Below the pieces are notes generated by a model that had not been told where the DNA came from, ran no database searches, and saw only the letters and a program-made list of their open reading frames with translations. Both the position numbers and the translations under genes were made by a program. A DNA stretch of 32,605 nucleotides from Amoeboaphelidium occidentale (taxonomy: Eukaryota). The stretch covers positions 186,001 through 218,605 of the forward strand of contig JALGPX010000008.1 of the NCBI GenBank assembly GCA_023515795.1, given 5' to 3'. This document shows, one piece after another, positions 1 to 30,412 of the stretch. Positions within the stretch are counted from its first letter, which is position 1. The number at the start of each line of letters is the position of its first letter.

Positions 1-2007
1 AATTCTGAACAAGAGTACAAATACTTTCTCGTAGACCTCAACTGTTGTGTCATTCAAAAACACTTTAATAAGATCATCTTCCCTGCTATTTGATGAAGAC
101 TCTGAACTTGTAGTTTTATAATCGATCATAAGATTGCTCCAAGGAGAATCGGCGTCATTACCCAATAATCGCACATCAAGTCGCTGCTTAACACTGACAT
201 CATCAAATTTCGCAACAGACTTATCCACACAATCATCTAAAGCATTGACCAGCAAATGTCTGTAGACTGCAACGCCGCCGTCCCAACCAGATTGACTGGA
301 TGTCGTGAAAAGTGAATCGAACTCTTTTAGAATATTGAGATAGAAGTCTCCCTTTCCCATAAGATAATAATCTTTCATGGCCTTTAAATGCAACACAAGA
401 TTTGATCTTCCCAGATAATCGATCATACATTTGTTCACGTGATGATACTTGCTATTTATCAGTTCGACTGTAATTTTGTCGCCCATCGGTAAAGTGTATT
501 GAGGAGCTTTATCAACATACTTAAGGTAATTCAGCGTTTTCCCAATGACATATACTCTTCTTAGTAATTCAGGAGTCAGAGAAAAGCTAACGTCAATCTT
601 CTTGAGAAAGTAAGTATCCCACATGTTGATATTAACTCCAGTAGATTTACTTATAATGAACTCGTCATACGGATCTTCAAGCGAGCCACGTTCCATCCAT
701 GCTTTTAAAAACTCATAAAAAGGCTTCACACACATTTCCCAAAGCCTTGGAAGGACATCAGAGTCTTCATCGGATTTGCAACTATAAATACGGTTTAGAA
801 GTTCGATACCATTTAAATCTTTAGAGGCGGCTATGGTTAAGACTTTCTTAACACACAATATCCGTTTGAGCTGTTGCCGTGTTAAATGCAAGACTCTAAT
901 CATTGAGATGTGCTGATCTGACGACACCATTTGAGACAAAGAGTCAATAAAGCGCAGATACTCCATATCCTCACTCTTTGCAGCGTCAAATAAACACTTT
1001 CTTACTAAAGAGCTAGAGTTATCCGTTTCCAATAAACGTTTGAATTCCATGTATTCATTCGGTAATCTGATCATCTCTTTGAGTAAATTGATAATACTTA
1101 AAGACAAGGAAGTATTTGCATAATTCACTTCATAAGAACCATCTTTCTTTCTGGCCAGAATAGGTTGCGAATTCTGATCCTTTATAACATTAGCAGAGGA
1201 GGATGAAACGTCTAGCGATTGACAACTATAAACAAACTCCCTCACAATGCGCCGATTCAAATCTTTACGGACGTGGCCCAAAACATTGTTGTTACCACCG
1301 GAAGAATTCTTTCGCTCTTTCTCGTCGACCACAAAGTCGCCACTGGGTGCGTTAGACAGCGGCTTTTGAAACAGCGCAGAGGAAGACGATGAAACGCTAT
1401 TAATCCCAGCCAAAAGTAACAAACTGCCGCCAGCGCTAGCACCGCCCATATCATCTGCGTTCGACCCTTTACCAATAGAATCCATCAAAGCCAATAGAAA
1501 CCGCAACACATTTGCGTACAAATCCGTCGAGCTTTTAGAGCAAATTTGTAGCTTCTTCAAAAGATACCCAAACAGCACAGCCTTCTTCGTACCTTCTTCC
1601 TCTGTTGTATTCCTGGACTGCACCAGCTTCTTTTTGATCATCTCTGTAACAGAATATTCATCCAAAGCAACGCTGTTTACAGTATAAATGCGACTATTAA
1701 GAATTCTGTTCAAATAAGAGCTTAGAAGAACTATTTGCTTTCGCTTATCCTCGGAACCAGATGGGACAGAATGTCTTATCAACTGAATCAGCAAGGCATT
1801 CTGTGTGTAGCCAACGGTCGCTGTAGTGCGCACAGATGTGTTTAGCGATTCTGTTTCAGCGAACAGGGAAGGAACTCCAGAGCTAAAGTTCGAAGCGCCC
1901 TGCTTTACATTCGGCAAAATGCCGCTGCTGCTGTTCGCATTAAAAGTATTTTCCTTGAACGATGTCGAAAGCATTCTGCTATAGTTTTTGTTGTCTCCGT
2001 CGGCCAT
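1..2007 (-). CDS. TUBGCP3: Gamma-tubulin complex component 3 (Spc98/Alp6/GCP3), 3' end beyond the window edge
   Basis: Not in the ORF track because it has no stop in the window. My translation is open from ATG 2007 to position 1 (669 codons). Motifs: KPFYEFLKAWMERGSLEDPYDEFII, VIGKTLNYLK, HLKAMKDYYLMGKGDF, VYRHLL and RLDVRLL...PW..L.IDY, matching the Spc97/Spc98 GRIP family and closest to GCP3. Confidence 0.88.
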   Translation of the reverse strand, partial: MADGDNKNYSRMLSTSFKENTFNANSSSGILPNVKQGASNFSSGVPSLFAETESLNTSVRTTATVGYTQNALLIQLIRHSVPSGSEDKRKQIVLLSSYLNRILNSRIYTVNSVALDEYSVTEMIKKKLVQSRNTTEEEGTKKAVLFGYLLKKLQICSKSSTDLYANVLRFLLALMDSIGKGSNADDMGGASAGGSLLLLAGINSVSSSSSALFQKPLSNAPSGDFVVDEKERKNSSGGNNNVLGHVRKDLNRRIVREFVYSCQSLDVSSSSANVIKDQNSQPILARKKDGSYEVNYANTSLSLSIINLLKEMIRLPNEYMEFKRLLETDNSSSLVRKCLFDAAKSEDMEYLRFIDSLSQMVSSDQHISMIRVLHLTRQQLKRILCVKKVLTIAASKDLNGIELLNRIYSCKSDEDSDVLPRLWEMCVKPFYEFLKAWMERGSLEDPYDEFIISKSTGVNINMWDTYFLKKIDVSFSLTPELLRRVYVIGKTLNYLKYVDKAPQYTLPMGDKITVELINSKYHHVNKCMIDYLGRSNLVLHLKAMKDYYLMGKGDFYLNILKEFDSLFTTSSQSGWDGGVAVYRHLLVNALDDCVDKSVAKFDDVSVKQRLDVRLLGNDADSPWSNLMIDYKTTSSESSSNSREDDLIKVFLNDTTVEVYEKVFVLLFRI

Positions 2008-2130
2008 GCGGAGGTGAAACAAATTTGTAAATAAAGAAGGAGAAGTTTATTGCGCAGAGCTTCAGCGTCTACATGCTGCGAGCTGGAGAGTATCGCGAAG
2101 ATTTGAACCCTGCTCAGCCTAGATCGTCTT

Positions 2131-3630
2131 TCATCGTCGAAAGTGATCCTTCTTGAACCGAAACTGTAAATACAAAACACCATTAGGATAGAATCTACAC
2201 AGAAACCCTCTCCAATGCGCACACTCCCACTCTTGATTCTTTATCCTGAAACATACATCCAAGTAAGGATGGCCAGCAGTGAATTTTAATAGTACAGTCT
2301 CATCTTGACCATCAGTGCTTTTCGGGCTTTCAGGATCTTTAATAAGTTTATAGCTCGGAGTCACAGTGCTTCCAATTAACTCAGGATAGAATGCAATAAA
2401 TCTGTAACCCTGTACCTTCTTTGGAGGAGGATTATCAGCAGAATAATGAGTTTGATTGTATTTGTTCCATTCAAAGCCCATCATTACCCTATTGAGGAAT
2501 CTAGGCTTCTTCCATCCTTGTAAATCTTTGACATCAACAGGCAGTTGGACTTCCTCAACAGGATGGAATACTGTTACCTTGTCGCCTTCCGCAGCCTCAT
2601 GAATAGCCTCAAGACGTCTAGCTTCTTTTAAATACAGAGCCGCGGCTGCAGCAGAGTCATCAAAAGGTACAAATGGTATTGAATGTGATTTGGTTGCTTC
2701 TGATACTTCTTGTACTTGTAGCAATGCGTTCAACTGTTTCTCTTTGTAACTTAATGCTTTCTTGCGTTTCACTTGTGGTGTTTCTTCAGCCTGCAATAAA
2801 TACTCTTCAGAATGAGACCGCTTTAGTGTCACAGAGACATCGTTGTCCTCTTGTATTGTTTGCTCCTGTACAATGTGTGGGGCCTCTGTTGTAGCATAAT
2901 CATATAAACTTTCTTCTTTCCTCTTATCAAGTATACTCAGTAATTCTTCAGCAGCATCAGATTCTCCCAGGGCTTTCAATTGTTCTATGCGCTTATTACA
3001 AAAACTCCGATAAATCTGAATTAATCGCGAGCGATCCTTAAAAACTTTCAGTGCTGCCAACATCGTTTCCCAATAATCGACATCGACAATGCCCTGCGTC
3101 GTTCCAGCGTTCTTCAATTTTGTATTGACTCGCTTTTCTAATTTCAAAAGTTCTTCCAAGCTCTTCTTTGATAAACTTTCATGAATGTCCCTTAGCACTT
3201 GAGCATTTATAGATGCCGGGTTCAATGCAGCAACAGAAGTAAACAAAAGACGTTCCTTAGTGGACCATTCAGAGTTAAGATCATTCGATAGCTTCTTCAG
3301 TTCATCATCGACAAGCCTTTGCAATATCATCCAATACTCCGATTCTTCGTGCTCAGCTTCCACAATGAATGCGACTTCATCTTTCAATTGTAATAACTCA
3401 TTATTGTCCAGATCATTCAGAATAACAAAAGGCTCAACGGGAAGAATATCACAATCCTCGAATATGCGCGCATTCTTTACAGCCTCTGAACAAATATTAA
3501 CAAAACAAAGCAGAAGGTCCACTGCACAAGGTCGACTGCTTTTGATCCTCTGAGCAGCCTTTTGCTTCATTTGCGTTAGGTGAAAAGCATCCTCTTTGCT
3601 CAGCTCAGAAGTCTTTGCTACGGAAGACAT
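2131..3630 (-). CDS. CACTIN: Cactin (spliceosome-associated), N-terminally short
   Basis: C-terminal signature KPRFLNRVMMGFEWNKYNQTHYSADNPPPKKVQGYRF...FTAGHPYLDVCFRI...WE; mid-domain FHLTQ...RIK...VDLL and DVDYWETML. First ATG in frame is 3630; the track start at 3669 is TTG. Confidence 0.92.
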   Translation of the reverse strand: MSSVAKTSELSKEDAFHLTQMKQKAAQRIKSSRPCAVDLLLCFVNICSEAVKNARIFEDCDILPVEPFVILNDLDNNELLQLKDEVAFIVEAEHEESEYWMILQRLVDDELKKLSNDLNSEWSTKERLLFTSVAALNPASINAQVLRDIHESLSKKSLEELLKLEKRVNTKLKNAGTTQGIVDVDYWETMLAALKVFKDRSRLIQIYRSFCNKRIEQLKALGESDAAEELLSILDKRKEESLYDYATTEAPHIVQEQTIQEDNDVSVTLKRSHSEEYLLQAEETPQVKRKKALSYKEKQLNALLQVQEVSEATKSHSIPFVPFDDSAAAAALYLKEARRLEAIHEAAEGDKVTVFHPVEEVQLPVDVKDLQGWKKPRFLNRVMMGFEWNKYNQTHYSADNPPPKKVQGYRFIAFYPELIGSTVTPSYKLIKDPESPKSTDGQDETVLLKFTAGHPYLDVCFRIKNQEWECAHWRGFLCRFYPNGVLYLQFRFKKDHFRR

Positions 3631-3707: not shown

Positions 3708-6544
3708 ATGCCAACAGAGAATGATCATATCAAACCAGGCACTTTTATGGCTGAATACTCTAAAGTGATTTACTTCATCATTATGTTTCATAACTCATTC
3801 CGTAGAGTGACCGCAGTTCATGCAAAAGATGTAACAAGGGAATCAAGAATGAGGCAGTCCGTATTATGCTGTTCCAAGCTTCGAACTTTCACGATGGCCT
3901 GCAGAAGACTAATTATCATCCGGAATGTTGTTTTGAGTATTTTTCTGGTATTCTACTGCACTGCGTTGATGATATCCTGCAATTTGACGCATTACGGAAT
4001 GATGATCAAATGAAACTGAGAAAGTTATGGGAAGAGTACGCGGACGAGAATGATGAACAAGATGGAGTTAAGAAGGGCTACATGATAGAAAAGTCGAAAA
4101 GTGGCAAGAGCAAATGCAGGTCATGTTTGGAGTTCATTGAGAAGAATCACATCAGGATGGGCTTCAAAGTTCTTGGTGCTTTTGGTTTGCAGATGGCATG
4201 GTATCATGTAGATTGTTTTATGGAACAGTGTAATGATATGGCTTCCTCTGTTAAGCAGTTTGGTAATTGGGATACATTGGAACAGGAAGAGATCGATCGC
4301 ATAGAAAGCTTGTTTGCCAAAGTTGCTGTGCCCGTTGCTGATAAACAAGGCACTTCTAAGGTTGATAAGGATTCTAATGATAAGGAAAATTTGATCAAAA
4401 AGCAGAATGACGAATTATGGAAACTGAAAGATGATCTGAACAAGAAATGCTTGCAACACTTGACGCTGAAAGACAGGAAAGCATTACTTATCGAGATTCT
4501 TCATAATAATAATGTCCAACTGGAGAGCAAGTCACACACAGATCCTCTCGATGTTGTTCTTGATTGCACACTTTACGGGTTGCCAAAAGAATGTCCAGAA
4601 TGTGGCAAATCAAGATTAATGTGGAGTTCTATCGATAACTTTTATAAGTGCCCAACATTCTTGGAATGGGGAAAATGTATAGGAAAACTAGATTCTGAAC
4701 AAGGTGTAGATCCTAATGCAGACTTGCAGTTAAATCTTTCTGAAGAATGGTATGCTGTAGATGAAAATGTACAAGGTGTAAAAAAGTATGTAGAAGCGTT
4801 GCTTAAAAGCTTAAAGAGCTCAAAGAAGAGAAAACGAGCTATGAAGACAAAAGCAGGTATTCCAAAGAGTGAAGTGGTGACTACAGATGACCTTGCAAAG
4901 AAGAGAAAGAGAAAGCCAGAGGAAGAGACAAATAATGTCAGCAAAGTGTATGTGAAGAATGGATATGAAATTGACGCCGAAACAGAACTGCAGGAAACAC
5001 ATCATATTTACGTCGAAGGAGACACTGCATACACTGCAACACTGTCGTCTACAGATGTTCATTCTGGTAGAAATGCTTTCTATAAATTGCAACTACTTGA
5101 ACCAGATAGTTTCAAAGGATCTTATTACTTGTTCAGATCATGGGGAAGAGTTGCCAGTAGTGCTGGAGGAACGAAGTTGCAAAGATTTATGAATGTTGAA
5201 TACGCCAAGGAAGAATTTTGCAATCAATTTCTTGAAAAGACAGGTAATGAATTTGAAGCAAAGGAGTTTGTCAAGAAACCAAAGAAATTCTATCCACTAG
5301 CTGTTGAGGCAAAGGCTTTAGCAAAGACGGTAGATTTGAGCAAGGAGAAAGCATCATCTTCACTTGCTCAAGAAGTTCAAGATTTGCTAATGTTGATTTT
5401 TGACCAGAATTTAATGAAGAAAGCTTTGAAGGAAATGGATCTTGACTTGCAGAAAATGCCTTTAGGTAACATATCAGAAACACAAGTGAAGAAAGGATAC
5501 TCAGTTTTGTCGGAGATAGAACAAATATTATCGGAAAGCAAGACTATCAAGAAGTCTGAAATCCAGGCTTTGTCAAGCAAGTTCTTTACCATCATTCCAC
5601 ATAACTTTGCTCGTGGAATACAAATGCCTTTGTTAGACAATCATGATTTTGTCAAGGAAAAGATTAAGATGCTAGACAATATGAGGGAAATATCTGCTGG
5701 TTTTGAAATGTTAAAAGTAGATGTTGAAGACAGTGGTAAGAATCTATTGGATAGTCATTATGAGGCACTTAGCACCGAAATTACAGTGCTTCCACAAAAG
5801 GCAACTGAATTTGCTTTGATAGAAAAATATGTCAATTCAACACATGCTCCAACTCATAAAGACTATAATTTGGATATAACTGCTGTTTTTAAAGTCGCTC
5901 GCTCTAATGAAATGGACATTTACAAAGAGCATCTAAAACAGAATCCGCGCTTGGCTGAAAACAGGTTAATGTTATGGCACGGAAGTAGAGTTACAAATTT
6001 TGCTGGTATTTTGCATCAAGGTCTTCGTATTGCTCCGGCTGAAGCTCCAGTTACTGGATACATGTTTGGAAAAGGTATTTACTTTGCTGATATGGTCACC
6101 AAGTCGGCAAATTATTGTTGCGCTACACCTGAGGACCCTACTGGGTTGCTTATACTATGTGAAACTGCCTTAGGCGATATGCACGAATTGACAGAGTCTG
6201 AGTTTATCGAGGAACTTCCAGACGGTAAATTTTCCACAAAGGGTTTGGGTAAATCAATTCCATCTGGATTTGAGAACTTTCCGACTGAGGTTAAAGGCAA
6301 AACTAGCGAAAATACAGATTCAGGCTATTTAAAGAAAGCGAGATCAATGAGAAGTTCATCAAGGAAAAAGCCTGTTGATAGTACTGTGGTTATGCCAATG
6401 GGGCCTCCAACAAAAAATTCAAGTTTAAAGAAAAGCGAGCTCCTATACAATGAATACGTTGTTTACAACCCAAAGCAAGTTTGTATTAGATATTTGGTTC
6501 AAGTTAAGTTTCAGTTCAAAGGTCGAAAGTCTGGGCGAAGATAA
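3708..6544 (+). CDS. PARP1: Poly(ADP-ribose) polymerase, PARP1-like; exons 3708-3764 and 3806-6544 (~931 aa)
   Basis: Splicing a 41-nt GT..AG intron (3765-3805) restores zinc finger 1 (AEYSK|SDRSSCKRC...YHPEC). Then zinc finger 2 (IEKSKSGKSKCRSC...WYHVDC), Zn3/PADR1 (CPECG...YKC...EWGKC), WGR (FRSWGRV), regulatory domain (KMPLG, FFTIIPH) and the catalytic H-Y-E motifs (LWHGSR, GYMFGKGIYFAD, LLYNEYVVY). Confidence 0.96.
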
Positions 6545-6545
6545 C
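6538..6545 (+). repeat. Target-site duplication, left copy (AAGATAAC), containing the PARP1 TAA stop
   Basis: Identical to 10795-10802 and directly abuts the left TIR; the match does not extend beyond 8 bp on either side. Confidence 0.82.
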
Positions 6546-6560
6546 TAAGGATGCCGCAAG
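6546..6560 (+). repeat. Terminal inverted repeat at the omegaRNA end
   Basis: TAAGGATGCCGCAAG versus the reverse complement of the other end, TATGGTTGCCGCAAG: mismatches only at positions 3 and 6. Confidence 0.8.
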
Positions 6561-6593
6561 CTGGCTTGTCAAGCCGACGCGCAGCAATCAGAA

Positions 6594-8783
6594 TTAGCTA
6601 GTCACAAAATAAAAATTACCTGCTACTTTAACCTGATAATCCCAAGAGTACCGGTTCTGCGGTCTTGCGACTGGTAGTAGCCTACAGGCCCGAAGGCTCA
6701 CGAGCTTGTATCCACTTGATTCCAAATTCTTGATCATAATATTCCGAGCAGCATTCATATCTCGATCGAACTTGAAACCGCAGTGTGTACAATTGAACTT
6801 TTTGTTTCCTCCAAGTTTGTGGTTGAGTCTCCCACAAACTCCACATGCTTTTGAGGTGTATTCCTCGGTGACAACATGGACTGCACAGTTTGGATTTTCC
6901 TCTGCTTTTTGAAGAAGTTTTTGTTTGAACCTGTAATTGAGACCAATTAAGCATATTTCTTGCAGTTTTCGAATTGATCTTGCGATTTGTCTTGATTACC
7001 ATCTTGCTAACATCAAAGGTAGGAATCAAGATGACATTGTAACGGCTTATGAGATCGTGCGCAAGTTTGCCGTGAAAATCAGATACCAAATTCTTGATGC
7101 GCTGCCGAGCCCTCTGAATTGCCGCGTTCATTCTTCTTCGTTTGTACCGATTCTTCCGACCGGTCTTGACCTCAGCTGCTTNACATCAAAGGTAGGAATC
7201 AAGATGACATTGTAACGACTTGTAAGATCATGAGCAAGTTTTCCATGAAAGTTTGAAATCAAATTCTTGATGCGCTGCCGAGCCCTCTGAATTGCCGCGT
7301 TCATTCTTCTTCGTTTGTACCGATTCTTCCGACCGGTCTTGACCTCAGCTGCTTTAGAAATTAAGCGATCCAAATTAAGACACAGCCTTTCAACTCTTCT
7401 GATATCGCCCTTTCCAGCCTCAAAGAAGTTCCCGAAGCTGTCGTACACGGTTTGAAACGTGCGAAGTCCAGGGTCTAGAGCAGCAGCCTTTGGATGATTT
7501 TCTTTAGTTTTTTCTTGATTGGTCTTGTTGTAAGGAAAGCACACGTAGAAGTGATCTGGCTTCTCCCAAACAACTTCAACTAGCCTCTTGTATTCCTTAG
7601 ATCCTTGTTTGTTCATTTCATTCTCTATGATTGATTTGGCCCGCTGAAATTCAGACTCTGATATGAGCTTAAGAGGCTTTCTGAGTGCATCAAGAGGAAG
7701 TTTCAGGCCAAAGTTTTTTCTTTCGGTGCATTTTCTGGCGCTGGTGGACTCAACACATCGAATCGCGTAAGCGCCCCCTGGGTAGAAGCTGAAGCTTTGC
7801 CGTACATCTTTCTTCTTTTTTCTTGACATTTTGTATTTGAANCTTTCTGAGTGCATCAAGAGGAAGTTTCAGGCCAAAGTTTTTCTTTCGGTGCATTTTC
7901 TGGCGCTGGTGGACTCAACACATCGAATCGCGTAAGCGCCCCCTGGGTAGAAGCTGAAGCTTTGCCGTACATCTTTCTTCTTTTTTCTTGACATTTTGTA
8001 TTTGAATGCTTTGTTTTGTTCTCTAAATGATTCCTCGGTGGCTTTGATAGAGGAGACCAGTTTGTGAATAGTTTCTTCTTTAATTTTGCTTGAACAAATG
8101 TTTCCATCGTACAGCCATGGACGGCTTGCTCGATCTTCCTCTGGAACATTGGAGGTAGTCACAATCTTGTTGCGAAGGGACTGCCAGTTCTTTGGGTGGC
8201 CACGGACGAACATTTCATCCAGCCCTTGATTCCACACCACGCGAACAATTCCAAAGATCTGTTTGAGTGCAGCTTTTTGTATGGCGTCAGGATGAACACG
8301 AATCTTGACGGATCGCATTGTTTCATCTGCTGCAGGCCCAGATTTCATTCTGCTGCAGATCTGTTTCTCATTAAATGACATGCCAGATTGCAGCGGTTTT
8401 GTTTTCTTTCTCTTTTTACTTTCAGGGCTCTGCCTGTTTAAATGGTATGCTTCCGGTGGATTTTTATGAACGGTAATTTTGTTGTTCAGTTGTGCAAGCG
8501 GTGCATAGTAATTGGCAGTGCACCAAGAAATAGTCCCCTTTGATGCTTTGAACTGAGTTACGGCGCTTGGACTAGATCGTGTTCCAGTATACTGAATTGC
8601 TAGTCTTTGAGACATTACTTTGGATTTATCAGTCCATCATGGCGCATATTTCAATGGTTGGGCTTGGTTTAATTGAGGAGTTGAAACAGGTGCTTGCGGA
8701 GCTGCTGCAGCTCTAGGAGTTCTATTAAGAGTCTGATATGGTTGGTGCTTTGGTTTCTTCTGCAATCTTGTTACGACAGGCAT
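6594..8783 (-). pseudogene. Fanzor2 (eukaryotic TnpB/IS607-derived RNA-guided endonuclease), ~616 aa reconstructed, disrupted as assembled
   Basis: Joined from track ORFs 7869-8615, 7128-7859 and 6682-7131 plus my translation. Start MPVVTRLQKK (ATG 8783); P*WTDKSKVMSQRL; NLS-like KKRKK; OrfB helix RSVKIRVHP...QKAALKQIFGIVRVVWN; RuvC-I ALDPGLRTF; RuvC-II region VILIPTF (Pro in place of the canonical Glu); NWSHYRFKQKLLQKA; relocated Glu VTEEYTSK; zinc finger CGVC...CTHC; RuvC-III DRDMNAARNI; stop TAA 6596-6594. Lesions: in-frame TGA at 8639-8637, one extra base at 6937/6938, and a 1-nt homopolymer deletion in one of two duplicate copies (~7870). Confidence 0.93.
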
Positions 8784-8844
8784 TGCTTAATGAAGAAAAT
8801 AGAAAGTCTACTGTTGAAACGATTTGATCATAGGGGCATTGATC

Positions 8845-9560
8845 TTGCCGAATAGGGTGGTAATTGATGTTACAACCCGCATGATCAAAAATCACTTTAT
8901 AAGGAAATAAAAGTGTCATTAAATTGACAAATCAATGCAATTCTTCTGTCAGAGGATGTACAATTACTTTGGCGGATGTTGGAATCATTTGAGTGGCAAA
9001 GTGCAAGAACTGCAGTCCTGACGACGTTCCCGTCATGTGAGATACATAAAAGTTGCTCACTTGCGATGTTAAATAAGCCATGACTTAAATATTGACTTGA
9101 AACGAGAAGAGTTCTAAATGTTTCGATAGTCTTTGATTTCTGTGATTGAAACAGCGCAATCGCGAAAAGAACCTGAGGCCATATGATGTTTCCGACAAAC
9201 GTATTCCAAATCTGTTGGAAGATTCTGAAAGGGCACTATGTGAAGTTTTATTTGGGCTGAATTCAAGCTCCCAGCTTGAGTCTTGAGAATGCCATCTCAA
9301 CTAGTTCCTTTAATTTTGAACTTTCACACGCTTAGAGAGAGTTTAGCACCGAGATAGCAAATAAATGTTTCCTCTGTCACAAATAAACGACGATATTGAT
9401 AGATACTACACGAAAACAGTGTTCAAGATGCCATTATTGGAGTCTTTGCATGAGATCAAACATCAGTCTGAAACAACAACACCAACACGCTACCATGTTT
9501 CACGCTTCAAGCGTCATTTGACAGAATAGTAAGCAAAGACTCAGAACTGAGAGTTTCATG
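8845..9560 (+). pseudogene. Heavily decayed hAT-like transposase remnant (C-terminal half)
   Basis: Fragments in hAT order across frameshifts: LPNRVVIDVTTR (8845-8880, compare L..DV.TRWNS), LLWRMLESFE / KVQELQS / DDVPV (8964-9034, compare L.PFE.AT.ELQ....PT), DDIDRYY (9389-9409) and KQRLRTESF (9531-9557, compare the dimerisation domain ELDRYL...R.RL..E). Recognised by eye only; many stops. Confidence 0.4.
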
Positions 9561-10757
9561 GGTACCGACTTAGAGCTGGGTAAGATATCTCGTTGAAACT
9601 ACTTTTGGCGCATAAACGATGCGCTAATGCTGTTAAGCTGAAACTCTGCAATTAAGTTTTTTAAGAGATTCTATTGTGATATTCGTGCTTGTTATGTCAT
9701 TGTTCGCCTTAATTGTCGTTCATTCAGAACCTTTTTATCATGGACTGAAACTCAAAAGAAATGCCTAATCAGCTTGTTTCAACGTCTTTCAGCGCATTGA
9801 ATGCATCACCAGAGGAGCAACATACTGCTACGCGATGTGATCTTTGTGCGCCATAAGTAAGAACTTGCTCAATTTAGAATAATTCTCAATGGGAACTCTT
9901 TCGCATTCATCTAATCTTGAGTCTTTCGACACGATCTGCAGTGGTAGTATCCAAATCTTTCCTAGTCAAAGTTCTAAATACAATAAAGTCGTGCAATATT
10001 CTCCAAACTATCGCGACCATGTAGCAATTTCAGCAGCAGCAACAGAACTGAAAGTATGGTCTCTGTGAGATATTTTCATCTAAATCGCCAGCAGGTTTTC
10101 GTGAATATCTTCTTTCCATGTTGCTCATTGTTCTTAACAGTAAATTTACTTTTAGTATCGATTAAGCTTTGCAAACTGANCTCAATGGGAACTCTTTCGC
10201 ATTCATCTAATCTTGAGTCTTTCGACACGATCTGCAGTGGTAGTATCCAAATCTTTCCTAGTCAAAGTTCTGAACATAATTATGGAGTGCAACATTCTCC
10301 AAAGTATCGCGACCATGTAGCAATTTCAGCAGAAGCAACAGAACTGAAAGTATGGTCTCTGTGAGATATTTTCATCTAAATCGCCAGCAAGTTTTCTTGA
10401 ATATCTTCTTTCCATGTTGCTCATTGTTCTTAACAGTAAATTTACTTTTAGTATCGATTAAGCTTTGCAAACTGATAGTAAGATGCGCAAATAAGTGCGT
10501 GACAAAAGTAAAGGAGTGCGCACAAAGTAAAACTATACATAGTATGAAAGCAAAAGAGTATGAGAGTGTAACAGTAACAGTTCTAAAGACAGTCACTGCA
10601 AAAAAACGGTGCAAGCATGGCAGATGTTTTAAGGAGAAAGAGCTGCAGCCCAAAAGAGTAATGATAATCTGTAGAACATCTCAGCAGAAGGATAGATTAC
10701 GGAACAGAGCGATTTTTAGCAATATCAAGATCCAGGATTAACTGTTGGAAAAAGCTT

Positions 10758-10794
10758 GTCTTGTTTTGTCTTGATTCGTCTTGCGGCAACCATA
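10758..10794 (-). repeat. Terminal inverted repeat (10780-10794) plus three GTCTTG subterminal repeats at 10-bp spacing
   Basis: GTCTTG starts at 10758, 10768 and 10778 and runs into CTTGCGGCAACCATA. Confidence 0.75.
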
Positions 10795-10802
10795 AAGATA
10801 AC
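10795..10802 (+). repeat. Target-site duplication, right copy (AAGATAAC)
   Basis: Identical to 6538-6545 and directly abuts the right TIR. Confidence 0.82.
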
Positions 10803-10909
10803 GAATCTGATTGGGCGAATAGATGTTTCAGAATTTTGCAGGGCCCAATACGGTTGGCGGACCTTGTAACAGCGTGCAACTCTTCACGATCCTGCCTATT
10901 TTTCTTGAA

Positions 10910-11989
10910 ATGATTCTCAAAAACTTAATCTACGCCGCTTCATTAGCTTTATCAGCATTCTCAGCTCCTACTGAGTACAAAGACGTTGCTGAAACAAGCG
11001 TATCTGTCGACGAGATGGCCATTCCATCAAACAATCATCACAGTGTATATTTGGTCACCGTCTTGCACAAGGAAAACCTCTTGGAAGATGGCAAAGTTGT
11101 CGCGAAACGCTTGTCAAACGTCAGACTCGTCTTTGATGTTGAAGATGGTCAATTGATGTGCAACGGTGAAATGGTTCCTGCTGGAGTCTCGAACAAAAGA
11201 GTTGCTGCTGAAATCTTAACCGGAATCTCTCAGGATAAACGTGATCAAGCAGATTTAATCAAGCAAAAGTTTGACAAGGGCATCGTTGATATCACGTTTG
11301 AAGTCAAGGTCGCTCAAGTTTCATTAGGAATTGTAACTGTTCGTCGTTTATACATCAGCGAACACATCAGACAAGTTAATGGAAATTCAGTTCTTCAAAA
11401 GGACTATGTTCAACACGTTATGGATATTTATCCATCAGGTGAATTCAAGCTTCAACAAGTTCACGGCCATCACGAAGACAAGCATCATGAACATCACGAA
11501 AACAAGCATCACGGACACGGACATAAGCACCATGGTCATCATGAAAGTAAGCACAAGAATGCTGCTCACGCCTTGCCTGCAAATGTTCACCCTGCTGTCG
11601 CTCCTATCGATGTAGCAGTTCGTCCTCATTTGAACCATGCTGCTCTTATTCCAAAGTTTGTTTCACAATCTTCTCGCAATGGTGATAAGGGTAACTGGAT
11701 TCTCTCAGATTACATGACCATGATTTTGACCAACCTTGCTATGTGGGTTTGCGAATTGAATCCTATTATGCGTGGATTCCTCTTTGGTCTATCTGCCACT
11801 GTTGTCACATTGACAATCTTTGCATTTGTTCAACTTGTTTCTGGCGCAATGAGCAGAAAGAAGTATGAACCTGTTCAGGTTGATTTTGAACAACAAATGT
11901 GGAAGCCAACAGCGGATAAGGACAAGTTTTACAAGCGTGGAAACGAGTCTGCTGTTTCATCCGTTAATTTGCTAACTCAACAGGAATAA
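10910..11989 (+). CDS. Signal-peptide membrane protein with a His-rich tract, function unknown
   Basis: MILKNLIYAASLALSAFSA signal-like start at 10910 (an upstream in-frame ATG is at 10823), HGHHEDKHHEHHENKHHGHGHKHHGHH tract, C-terminal hydrophobic segment and short tail; AATAAA overlaps the stop. Confidence 0.75.
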   Translation: MILKNLIYAASLALSAFSAPTEYKDVAETSVSVDEMAIPSNNHHSVYLVTVLHKENLLEDGKVVAKRLSNVRLVFDVEDGQLMCNGEMVPAGVSNKRVAAEILTGISQDKRDQADLIKQKFDKGIVDITFEVKVAQVSLGIVTVRRLYISEHIRQVNGNSVLQKDYVQHVMDIYPSGEFKLQQVHGHHEDKHHEHHENKHHGHGHKHHGHHESKHKNAAHALPANVHPAVAPIDVAVRPHLNHAALIPKFVSQSSRNGDKGNWILSDYMTMILTNLAMWVCELNPIMRGFLFGLSATVVTLTIFAFVQLVSGAMSRKKYEPVQVDFEQQMWKPTADKDKFYKRGNESAVSSVNLLTQQE

Positions 11990-26242: not shown

Positions 26243-27307
26243 TTCGATCTATATCTGTTGGAAAACAAGAAGTTTAAAGAGTTTTGGTTGATTCTTCTGA
26301 TACTTTCTGTCTTTCAAGCGATCTCAAACAGCAAAGACGCCACAGATCTCGTGTGAACGGATTTGGATTTGAATTAAACTTTAAAACGCTCGCTAATGGT
26401 CATCAGTACAGCAAAATCATTGCCCAAAACGAAACTGCTGGTCAGGGCGCTGGTGCTCGTTGGTTGCTTTGTGCTACTCTCTGTAATTTACCTCTCATTT
26501 ACATCCAAGACATCATCAGAGGTTCAGAATGATTACGATACAGCCCTAAAACAACTTAATGATAAAGCGGATAAGATTTACAGCAAAATAAGAGAATTTG
26601 ACGCTTCTAATTACGGAAAGCACTCAATACCTCAAAGCAATGTTGTTCCAGTGGCGGAATCAGGAAAGTTTAATACTTACGGGTCAAACGACGTGATACC
26701 CATCCTACTATTTGCTTGTGAGCGGCCTGAGATGTCAAGGACTCTGGATTCTCTGCTTAAGTACCGGCCTAATGGAAATTTTCCGATCATCATCAGTCAG
26801 GACTTAAATCATCAGGATGTGACCGAAGTTATCAGAAAGTATTCTGACAGAGGCCTGGCTATTCATCTGAGGCAACCTGTTATGGAAAAACCAGCTGTTG
26901 AGAAAGGTCATGAATATTTANAGAGGTATCCCATTTTGATAAATCATTGTCTGGCTCAACATATCTAGTAACACAACGAATAGTGAAGATATGAATATTA
27001 AAGCTGTGACGATGAATGCAGAGTATTCCAGTCTCCTTGTAGGTCTTCGGATTGCTGTAGTTTGATGATCATTTGTAACATGTCTTTTGAGTTTCGGACT
27101 CTTTTGCACTGATATTGGCCTCTGTGGTTGCTGATCTGTTACAGCTTGGCTCATTTCGATCTATATCTGTTGGAAAACAAGAAGTTTTAAGAGTTTTGGT
27201 TGATTCTTCTGATACTTTCTGTCTTTCAAGCGATCTCAAACAGCAAAGACGCCACATATCTCGTGTGAACGGATTTGGATTTGACTTAAACTTTAACACG
27301 CTCGCTA

Positions 27308-28939
27308 ATGGTCATCAGTACAGCAAAATCATTGCCCAAAACGAAACTGCTGGTCAGGGCGCTGGTGCTCGTTGGTTGCTTTGTGCTACTCTCTGTAATT
27401 TACCTCTCATTTACATCCAAGACATCATCAGAGGTTCAGAATGATTACGATACAGCCCTAAAACAACTTAATGATAAAGCGGATAAGATTTACAGCAAAA
27501 TAAGAGAATTTGACGCTTCTAATTACGGAAAGCACTCAATACCTCAAAGCAATGTTGTTCCAGTGGCGGAATCAGGAAAGTTTAATACTTACGGGTCAAA
27601 CGACGTGATACCCATCCTACTATTCGCTTGTGAGCGGCCTGAGATGTCAAGGACTCTGGCTTCTCTGCTTAAGTACCGGCCTAATGGAAATTTTCCGATC
27701 ATAATCAGTCAGGACTTAAATCATCAGGATGTGACCGAAGTTATCAGAAAGTATTCTGACAGAGGCCTGGCTATTCATCTGAGGCAACCTGTTATGGAAA
27801 AACCAGCTGTTGAGAAAGGTCATGAATATTTAAGGGTTTACTATGCGATCGCGCGACATTATCGCTGGGCTTTTACGCAAGTGTTTGATAGTTTGGGATA
27901 TGACCAAGTGATTATCGTTGAAGATGATATGGAATTTTCTCCGGACTTTTTTGATTATTTCTCTTCTTTTTTGCCTTTGCTCAGGGAAGATGAAACATTA
28001 CTCTGTGTGTCTTCGTGGAATGATAATGGAAAGTTTGGAAATGCATCAGATGTATTTTACAGATCGGATTTCTTTCCCGGATTAGGATGGATGATGACAA
28101 AGAAATTATGGTTAGAATTAAAGCCCAAATGGCCTGCTGCTTTCTGGGATGACTGGTTGAGAATTGACGAACAGAGAAAGGGAAGAGCATGTATTCGGCC
28201 AGAGGTGTCTAGAACTTCGAATTTTGGAGGTGAAGGTGCCAGCAAAGGACAGTTCTTCGAGGATCATATTGCTTCTGTACAGAAAAACTCTGAGATGACA
28301 GAATACACTGGTTTAGATGCAAATCGCAAAGAATTACTGCCTTTTACAAAATCGCAAAGAGAAGATCAGATGGTAGGCAAAAACATTTGGAATTCTTTTA
28401 AAAACACACAGGTAGATGTTAGAAAGTACAAAAAATCAGAGTATGATCGTGTTTTCTTAGATCAAGTTTACCGATACTCGACTATTATTGATGCCCTGCA
28501 ACTGCTTACACTGTTGAATTCTCCAGACCCTCATACGAGCAAACTTTTCGTAGATTCTCCTAATGCTGTTGTTCCAGATGATCTAAAGAAGCCATTGAAG
28601 TTAGAACTACATCCTGCGCTATATCCAAACACTGCGTACTATTGCGGGGAGTATTGCTTGAGACGATTTACTGTTATTTACCAAAAGGCTGGTGTTCAAG
28701 GTTGGGATGATTTCGTGAAACTAGCAAAAGAGTTTAAATTAATGGAGGATATCAGAGCAGGTCAGGCTCGCACTGCGTATCTTGGCATAGTCTGTTTTAA
28801 ACTACCAATTAAGAACCCGAAGGATATGGTTTTCATAAGTGGTAAAGGCGCTGCTGAAACTTATACATTGAACGGAAGACCAGAGTCTGTGGTACAAGTC
28901 TGTGTAGCACCGCCTGAGAATAAATCAGAAAAGCCTTAA
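27308..28939 (+). CDS. MGAT1: N-acetylglucosaminyltransferase I (GT13); a partial duplicate at 26396-26920 is an assembly bubble
   Basis: Type II TM anchor; ACERP, FPIIISQD, YYAIARHYRWA, IIVEDDMEFSPDFFDYF, CVSSWNDNG, YRSDFFPGLGWM, WPAAFWDDWLR, RACIRPEVSRT. Confidence 0.93.
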   Translation: MVISTAKSLPKTKLLVRALVLVGCFVLLSVIYLSFTSKTSSEVQNDYDTALKQLNDKADKIYSKIREFDASNYGKHSIPQSNVVPVAESGKFNTYGSNDVIPILLFACERPEMSRTLASLLKYRPNGNFPIIISQDLNHQDVTEVIRKYSDRGLAIHLRQPVMEKPAVEKGHEYLRVYYAIARHYRWAFTQVFDSLGYDQVIIVEDDMEFSPDFFDYFSSFLPLLREDETLLCVSSWNDNGKFGNASDVFYRSDFFPGLGWMMTKKLWLELKPKWPAAFWDDWLRIDEQRKGRACIRPEVSRTSNFGGEGASKGQFFEDHIASVQKNSEMTEYTGLDANRKELLPFTKSQREDQMVGKNIWNSFKNTQVDVRKYKKSEYDRVFLDQVYRYSTIIDALQLLTLLNSPDPHTSKLFVDSPNAVVPDDLKKPLKLELHPALYPNTAYYCGEYCLRRFTVIYQKAGVQGWDDFVKLAKEFKLMEDIRAGQARTAYLGIVCFKLPIKNPKDMVFISGKGAAETYTLNGRPESVVQVCVAPPENKSEKP

Positions 28940-28953
28940 AGATAACACAAGCT

Positions 28954-30412
28954 CTATTCAAGCGTGGATAGGTCAATTTCATGATCTCCAGAATTATCTA
29001 CTCTGTTGAGAATTGTTTCTTCAACTGTTGATAGTCTCTCTTCCATAATAAGCATTGTTTGCGTCAATATGTCAATTTGTGTTACAAGTTGCTGCAAAGT
29101 TTTTGTAAGTTGAGTAGTCTCTAAATAAGGAGTAGCAGCGGCAGGTCCTGTTGCCACATTCCGAACTTTCTTTGGCGAAATACTTGTCTTTGCTGCATTT
29201 TGAGATGGTTCCCTATTAACAATGAGTTCGCCAATATCATTAACTACTTTCTTTTCTGGAGATGATTTAATTGGAGCATTTCCTTTGATTTTGTCTACAA
29301 ATTCTTCCTGAGCTGCGCTTTGTTCAGTTCCCGGAAGATTTTCGTTATTATAAATATTATTGAAACTTGCATTCCATAACAATATCTGTGCATCCTCTCC
29401 AGCTGAAGCAAAGAGCTTTCCACCACAATCGTCTGCAGAAAATACAGCAGATGTAGTTGCTCCATTTTTATGACCGTAAAGCGTATAAAACAAATGTCCC
29501 TCCTGAATATCCCATACTTTAACAAGACCATCTCCTCCAGTAGTTATCATCCACTCTCCTGACTTGCCACCAAAGTCAAGACTATTTACTGTTCCGGCTG
29601 CTCCTTCCTTATTACCATGAGCATTCGGATAGTTCTGAAGCAATCGCTTATACCGCAAGTCCCATATCTTGACTGATCTATCGCTTGAGGTGGAACCAAT
29701 TAAATTCCCAGAAGGATGGAATGCAACACATGTGATCAGACTAATAATTAATTAAAAAATTCGGCAAAAATACCCTGTGTGTTCAAGGAAAGTTTCAACA
29801 CATTCTTTCGACCTGGTATCCCATAGTTTCACAACTTTATCATCGCTACCAGACACCACTAGTCTACTATCAGGACTAAACTTTGCGCATCGAACCCAAT
29901 TAACATGTCCCGTCAGGGAATATAAGAAGCGAGTCTTTTGTGCATTCCATAATTTTATGGACTTATCATCAGAGCTAGAAAGTATCGTTTCACCATCGTG
30001 GGAGAATGTGACTGATCTGACAGTATTTACATGAGCCTTAAAAGTTGTAACATCGCCTCTTCTACAGAAAATATTAAAAAAAGTTGCTCCATGTCGCTTA
30101 CACACTTGTGGTCCAGAGTTTTATGGTATTATCTGATGAACCTGAGGCTAAAAGCGGATCAGTCGGATGAAAGTCTACACTGTGAACAGCTGCCTAAGAT
30201 TATGAGCACCGTCAATTCCAAAAATTTCAAAGCATTACTTGATGTCCAGCGAACCGCAGGGCTCTCATACCAGGCTTCGTATAATAACAAATAACATCAT
30301 GATCCTTGCTTCCACTTGCAATATATTTTCCACCAGGATGGAATGCAACAGAAGTAACAGTCTTCTTATGCCCCTTCAGAGATCTTTCCAGCGTTGGATC
30401 AGGAGAAGTCAT
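28954..30412 (-). CDS. POC1: Centriolar WD40 protein POC1, with three short introns
   Basis: DPTLERSLKGHK, RALRFAGH, FKAHVNTVRSVTFS, SLTGHVNWVRCAKFSPD, YTLYGH, and the C-terminal POC1 coiled coil TLQQLVTQIDILTQTMLIMEERLSTVEE. GT-AG introns near 30238-30194, 30098-30063 and 29773-29741. Confidence 0.9.

Follow-up and report, generated by a model that had tools for sequence, protein, structure and literature searches.

Fanzor2 nucleases have been associated with hAT, Helitron and IS607 elements (PMC10530073). Those in elements flanked with terminal inverted repeats (TIRs) as well as target-site duplications (TSDs) are termed Fanzor2*, reported in PMC10711439 from an alga and molluscs only. That TIR/TSD elements have captured Fanzor2 is already in print, hAT being among the associates named, and Fanzor2 in cut-and-paste elements is a proposed step between bacterial IS607 TnpB and Fanzor1. 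The present locus lies in a stretch of 32,605 nucleotides of Amoeboaphelidium occidentale (contig JALGPX010000008.1 of assembly GCA_023515795.1, positions 186,001 to 218,605 of the forward strand; hereafter "the window", to which all coordinates refer). It contains an element at 6546-10794, ~3,615 bp long after removal of three assembly duplications, which is a Fanzor2*, i.e. a Fanzor2 between TIRs, with a TSD and without the recombinase TnpA. We consider it probable that this is a multicopy TIR element with an 8-bp TSD, a broken Fanzor2 and no recognisable transposase, likely moved in trans by a DDE transposase, presumably of hAT type. Public sequencing data comprised 16 rows from eight studies, and five runs (X1, X2, X3, X5 and X7) were compared with the window.

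The ends of the element and its immediate surroundings are as follows (coordinates, strand, feature):

6538-6545, no strand: TSD copy 1, AAGATAAC, containing the stop codon TAA (6542-6544) of a PARP gene; read from the sequence and found as a single 8-mer in empty alleles
6546-6560, plus: TIR at the Fanzor 3' end, TAAGGATGCCGCAAG, fitting the motif YARNG; an X5 copy starts at 6546 with another flank, and depth jumps here
10758-10783, plus: three GTCTTG repeats, the last one overlapping the TIR, likely transposase-binding sites; read from the sequence
10780-10794, minus: TIR at the 5' end, TATGGTTGCCGCAAG here and TCAGG... in other copies; loose ends beginning TGA lie behind 10791 in X3 and X7
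10795-10802, no strand: TSD copy 2, AAGATAAC; read from the sequence

The 8-mer lies directly outside both ends, and the TIRs match at 13 of 15 positions, both where the preliminary description of this locus had placed them. They form the only inverted repeat of at least 13/15 with an 8-bp repeat directly outside in the window, and none occurs in 30 shuffles; weaker pairs of 11-12/15 are common (five more in the window, 42 across the 30 shuffles). GTCTTG recurs at 10758, 10768 and 10778, i.e. with the 10-bp spacing reported before, and is confined to the 10794 end; the chance figure of 2/100 shuffles is optimistic, the pattern having been taken from the sequence itself. Across copies, the termini are summarised as TM(A/T)GG(A/T)TGCCGCAAG.

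One strain carries the element at this site, and related strains lack it there. In X1, single contigs cross each junction at single-copy (flank) depth, one over 5200-6639 with three differences and one over 10655-11200 with none. The insertion is absent at this site in X2, X3 and X5 (three other studies), whose PARP is ~97% identical to that of the window (38-40 differences in 1,343 bases). A loose end of X2 behind 6542 continues into the right flank, reading AAGATGAC then GAATGTGATTGGGCG with a single 8-mer, and window positions 6538 and 10795 both fall on base 10003 of a 20,148-nt contig in X5 and on base 130 of a 2,947-nt contig in X3, these contigs being paired between the left- and right-junction comparisons by equal size and depth. 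The empty site predicted beforehand therefore exists. An X7 contig stops fitting at 10795, the same pattern on the one side compared. The PARP stop codon lies inside the 8-mer (TAA here, TGA in X2), so that the insertion leaves the PARP protein whole. The first ATG of the next gene follows the site by ~25-110 bases in the empty allele (10803-10910), and the insertion parts PARP from its 3' region.

The element is a member of a multicopy family and was found in all five runs. Summed contig depth in X1 rises abruptly at both TIRs, from 103-109 outside to 338-3408 within the element, which is evidence of a repeat and not of copy number. Other copies share the termini and differ in their flanks, as had been proposed for a test: one in X5 begins at 6546 behind a different flank (...TCTGAGAG), and one in X3 ends at the other TIR and continues with TTCCGAAC, provided that its boundary is identical. 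Since other copies carry other flanks, the 8-mer is not part of the element and differs by site; it is a true, variable TSD. Loose ends occur behind 10791 in X1, X3 and X7, of which the X1 and X7 consensuses are blends of several flanks (agreement 0.63-0.64); no TSD was read from these two. A 706-nt contig of X1, at ~10x the depth of the flanks, shows 50 differences from the window in 483 bases and suggests a homogeneous subfamily distinct from this copy. Contigs with internal skips (10306-10466 in X1, 10347-10427 in X3 and 6621-6695 in X5) may come from copies with internal deletions, one of which lies in the candidate omegaRNA.

The interior contains the following features, to which the predicted guide region outside the 6546 end is added (ORF, open reading frame):

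6594-8783, minus: pseudogene of a Fanzor2, for which reading through with X gives 616 positions; Pfam, alignment and motifs
6546-6760, minus: candidate omegaRNA scaffold, placed by its position, overlapping the ORF end and with a terminal hairpin at ~6552-6586
6522-6545, minus: predicted guide region, made up of the TSD and adjoining flank, in antisense to the final PARP codons; putative role after PMC10711439 and PMC13565253
7010-7354, no strand: assembly duplication around N7182, two versions with 12 differences, nine of them synonymous in the Fanzor frame; sequence comparison
7677-8006, no strand: assembly duplication around N7842, versions differing by a 1-base indel; sequence comparison
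8784-10757, no strand: 5' interior of ~1.7 kb with no recognisable gene, repeated over 10181-10757 and including the duplication below; Pfam, protein searches and depth
9885-10475, no strand: assembly duplication within the 5' interior; sequence comparison

Pfam confirms a TnpB-like gene directed at one TIR: HTH_OrfB_IS605 (PF12323), OrfB_IS605 and Cas12f1-like_TNB are matched on the minus strand, pointing towards the 6546 end. The RuvC-I motif ALDPG occupies residues 380-384 (DPG at residue 382, catalytic D at 7473-7475), the shifted catalytic E (6861-6863) stands six residues before the first zinc-finger C (EEYTSKAC, 527-534), and RuvC-III reads DRDMN at 560, its final D562 at 6759-6761. DPG, a shifted E before the zinc finger and the last D are fingerprints of Fanzors (PMC10711439). 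ApmFz2 (PDB 9B0L) is the sole significant match for the middle part, one of two PDB matches listed, and near-identical published proteins are classed as family5. Judged by its helix-turn-helix (HTH) domain, DPG, shifted glutamate and zinc finger, together with that family5 label, the gene is a Fanzor2, TnpB-like and compact, as first proposed. The preliminary description missed, on the other hand, that this copy is broken. A premature stop at codon 49 (8637-8639) could be bypassed by a later ATG, and a one-base frameshift near 6937-6940 severs E, zinc finger and last D, with the loss of two catalytic residues. The gene remains broken after removal of the assembly duplications; the stop of a published relative corresponds to the codon at 6642-6644. 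From its reading frame this copy is a pseudogene, predicted to be unable to make an active nuclease.

A number of observations weigh against the reading given at the outset. No transposase is found in the element, its 12 read-through frames matching no transposase family in Pfam at E<=5. Its 10794 end misses YARNG, with TATGG here and, if the boundary is the same, TCAGG in other copies. Paired TSD copies of a single insertion are seen at this locus only, other copies showing one flank each, and X1 is possibly the source of the window, hence not independent support. The region between gene and TIR, previously called hairpin-rich, does not fold beyond chance: eight windows ending at the TIR or the TSD give minus-strand z values of -0.04 to -1.75 against shuffles, and a further test gives -0.97. 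At position 6940, the deletion that opens the reading frame accounts for only 102/508 of X1 depth; several copies may have the broken form in common, with intact copies a minority, and a full-length intact copy was not seen in one piece.

An 8-bp TSD and short TIRs (15 bp, 13 matching) are hAT features. The hAT terminal motif is YARNG, and TIRs of 11-16 bp are given in the hAT table of PMC3014272; the 6546 end, TAAGG, fits this motif. It is from the ends alone, i.e. from the TSD length, the 15-bp TIR and the one YARNG end, that the hAT label is taken, and on these features a mobilising transposase of the hAT superfamily, acting in trans, is somewhat favoured. Of the "hAT-type transposon" described earlier, the multicopy TIR element with a true 8-bp TSD stands; hAT membership does not follow, given a 5' end of TATGG/TCAGG and neither a transposase nor a remnant of one being found. 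The same element could instead depend on a transposase of another superfamily with 8-bp TSDs (IS4-like as in ESvi-1B, Mutator, Merlin, P or Zisupton/KDZ), which we regard as possible but unlikely. Mutator, Merlin, P and Zisupton can produce such duplications. The deviating 5' end speaks for this alternative, as does a published Fanzor1 element (PMC3627910), which is of IS4 type and has TSDs of 8 bp and TIRs of 18 bp. The fit of the 3' end and a TIR length inside the hAT range argue the other way. So, in part, do three known or presumed targets, compared in Fanzor orientation with the hAT-table pattern NTNNNNAN: T at position 2, half of that pattern, is found in all three, and A at position 7 in one only. 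Two targets, in the same orientation, read C then GTT at the start of the TSD (ATTC followed by GTTATCTT, 10795-10806, and AAGC followed by GTTCGGAA, an X3 loose end), and the third begins CTC; C before GTT is possibly a preference of the target or of the target-adjacent motif (TAM), on very few sites.

The 5' interior yields no matches in Pfam or in protein searches (7,993 plus 175 candidates, limited length ranges, minus frames only), nothing in phages, and no usable match in the Atlas (best 0.77). A hint of minus-strand coding at 10181-10607 (9/19 variants synonymous) is not repeated by the comparison of C1 and C2 (3/12), the codon model being uninformative. A metagenome scan for the TIRs returned 41 loci, all 41 of them chance matches and none related to the element, and a metagenome protein scan returned 127 pattern matches and no relatives.

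Somewhat less likely still is that the Fanzor is now a passenger and that the family spreads by its ends alone, a long, variable TSD having uncoupled the TAM from the guide and left few insertions open to cutting. For this speak the breaks in this copy, the broken form retained by most of the X1 depth at the frameshift, an RNA region that is variable between copies and weakly folding, and the argument in PMC13565253 that OMEGA systems are of little benefit to DDE elements. Against a mere passenger stand the intact catalytic triad, a one-base deletion at 6935-6940 that leaves the frame open in contigs of all four of four runs, and the synonymous bias between copies: 9/12 differences between the versions at 7010-7354 and 6/9 among the variants listed are synonymous in the Fanzor frame, which argues that the family was under selection for the protein.

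For the RNA, each of the eight windows folds better on the minus than on the plus strand. Rfam gives no matches at E<=10 for the candidate omegaRNA region, and the non-coding ends of the element show no similarity to 160 related loci. Pseudoknot pairings of the end or the TSD with 6598-6621 were rejected as not distinguishable from chance. The key pseudoknot may escape such fold predictions (PMC11832414), so that a weak fold is no refutation of an omegaRNA. The earlier claim that the guide is readable from this one locus does not hold, since its start cannot be read.

In the mechanism that we propose under the preferred reading, an IS607-derived Fanzor2 would have lost its serine recombinase and then been framed by TIRs, to be mobilised in trans by a cut-and-paste (DDE) transposase encoded elsewhere. 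In intact copies, the nuclease would be guided by an RNA that extends past the 6546 end into flanking sequence; empty alleles would be cut by this nuclease, and their repair would copy the element back (restorative homing, as modelled in PMC13565253). In the published model, the RNA scaffold includes the 3' TSD and the TAM includes the 5' TSD (PMC10711439, PMC13565253), and a long variable duplication conflicts with this TSD-in-scaffold model. With an 8-bp TSD in the scaffold and a TAM of 3 nt, as in ApmFz2 (PMC11832414), the filled 3' junction would read as an empty site and the element would be cut. The scaffold should thus take at most two of the eight TSD bases, because the filled site would otherwise be its own target, unless the TAM is longer or the enzyme inert. 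By this geometry the guide is likely to begin at the end of the element or close to it, with the TSD as its seed. A guide starting at the TIR would begin GUUAUCUUCGCCCAG, the empty site offering the TAM TTC and the filled site TTA. This broken copy may still supply guide RNA in trans.

In the present case both ends are known, the TSD is proven, the allele occurs filled as well as empty, and copies are many. It thereby becomes testable by what means an RNA-guided nuclease whose TAM is short distinguishes an empty site from a filled one, given that eight arbitrary bases are duplicated by the transposase. Any intact copy would add another compact nuclease, possibly with an unusual TAM. A bolder version, which we think rather improbable, is an independent and still active hAT capture of Fanzor2 in an aphelid-like lineage, in which the variable 8-bp TSD would be guide seed and not scaffold and the last bases of the TIR, TTA, would protect the filled site. 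If true, it would imply a nuclease with a relaxed or target-matched TAM, homing into empty alleles, and broken copies as guide donors.

Relatives of the protein were drawn from 159 loci fetched from viruses and mostly cyanobacterial genomes, 122 of them with a whole ORF. A TnpA-like ORF lies upstream in 81/122 of these viral and bacterial loci (all four checked are Pfam Resolvase); viral scans with single proteins gave zero and one loci. FastTree, run on up to 215 core regions, places the protein together with P0010 and P0134 (support 0.975) and with no TnpA-linked locus; the tree has neither a Fanzor1 nor a canonical TnpB outgroup, its deeper nodes are weak, and it adds little to the Fanzor2 assignment. 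The same capture may be found at the ends of more distant Fanzor2 subfamilies (P0005, P0008, P0009, P0010 and P0154; 40-48% identity), one of which comes from an A. occidentale record. No TnpA remnant is found in the six frames of the element (profile of 74 TnpA ORFs, best E 0.27), which bears out the earlier remark that no serine recombinase is visible. It is very improbable that the element is of IS607 type and mobilised by a serine recombinase, with the 8-mer a crossover core or chance, even though most relatives stand behind an IS607 TnpA and IS607 ends carry short direct repeats (PMC9956272). IS607 elements are described in PMC13565253 as having no TIRs, no TSD and mostly GG ends; here, one 8-mer in the empty site against two in the filled one, and other copies with other flanking 8-mers, exclude IS607 recombination as the mode of insertion. 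The capture scenario put forward earlier, an IS607-type nuclease taken up by a hAT element and moved with it, is upheld for a Fanzor2 in a mobile TIR element and not for the membership in hAT.

Duplicated blocks flank all 13 N gaps of the window (e.g. 18666, 19449, 20980, 26921), of which three lie in the element; the blocks are tandem, 100-900 bp long and 93-99% identical, one with a 1-base indel. The three duplications in the element (172, 165 and 295 bp, each at a single N) are taken as assembly artefacts because all 13 gaps show them; the interior may be a mosaic of copies, and tandem duplications of this kind will look like split or duplicated genes all through the assembly. These gaps could suggest that the whole architecture is artefactual, a repeat having been wrongly scaffolded into the PARP end, but single X1 contigs across each junction at single-copy depth and a TSD that matches the empty site exactly make this hardly credible.

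Elsewhere in the window, Pfam recognises a GnT-I (MGAT1) gene at 27290-28939, and a WD40 gene at 28954-30120 presumably resembles the centriole protein POC1; the two fit an early-diverging, fungus-related host. The A. occidentale lineage seems unusually rich in Fanzors, with 84 mentions across the Fanzor tables in the supplement of PMC10711439, many of them Fanzor1-like by eye.

No description of the element, and no publication naming both "Fanzor" and "Amoeboaphelidium", was found in the literature searched, subscription journals and Repbase lying outside that search. The protein family itself is already catalogued in two 2023 datasets (PMC10530073, PMC10711439), and its closest named proteins are from A. 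occidentale: Fanzor50_0689 and Fanzor50_2250 (family5) are near-identical members, listed in Data S1 of PMC10530073 as proteins only, and KAI3657634.1 of A. occidentale belongs to the same family, with the transposon column left blank (PMC10711439, Tables S2, S3 and S5). Published members are ~93% identical by eye over 250 C-terminal residues, and NCBI fragments 76-87%.

Among the described systems, ApmFz2 and the eukaryotic IS607 elements (PDB 9B0L, PMC11832414) have the same protein architecture and catalytic layout, and their 3-nt TAM was taken as a model; in contrast to the present element, which has neither recombinase nor that insertion mode, they are reported with a serine recombinase, GG ends and no TSD. 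ESvi-1B is likewise a Fanzor in a TIR element with 8-bp TSDs, but its protein is a Fanzor1, its IS4-type transposase is present, and it is virus-borne and single-copy (PMC3627910). The non-autonomous associations of hAT with Fanzor (PMC10530073, and the Repbase cases that PMC13565253 cites) share the ends without transposase and include Fanzor2 among the hAT associates; those calls come from automated classification of a 10 kb context and from Repbase similarity, whereas here the ends, the TSD and the empty site are direct and the hAT label is not. The Fanzor2* elements of Chloropicon primus and molluscs (PMC10711439) agree with the present one in DPG and the shifted E, in the TIR/TSD cut-and-paste element and, as far as they are described there, in having no IS607 TnpA, and differ from it in host lineage; here, moreover, the TSD is 8 bp long and variable.

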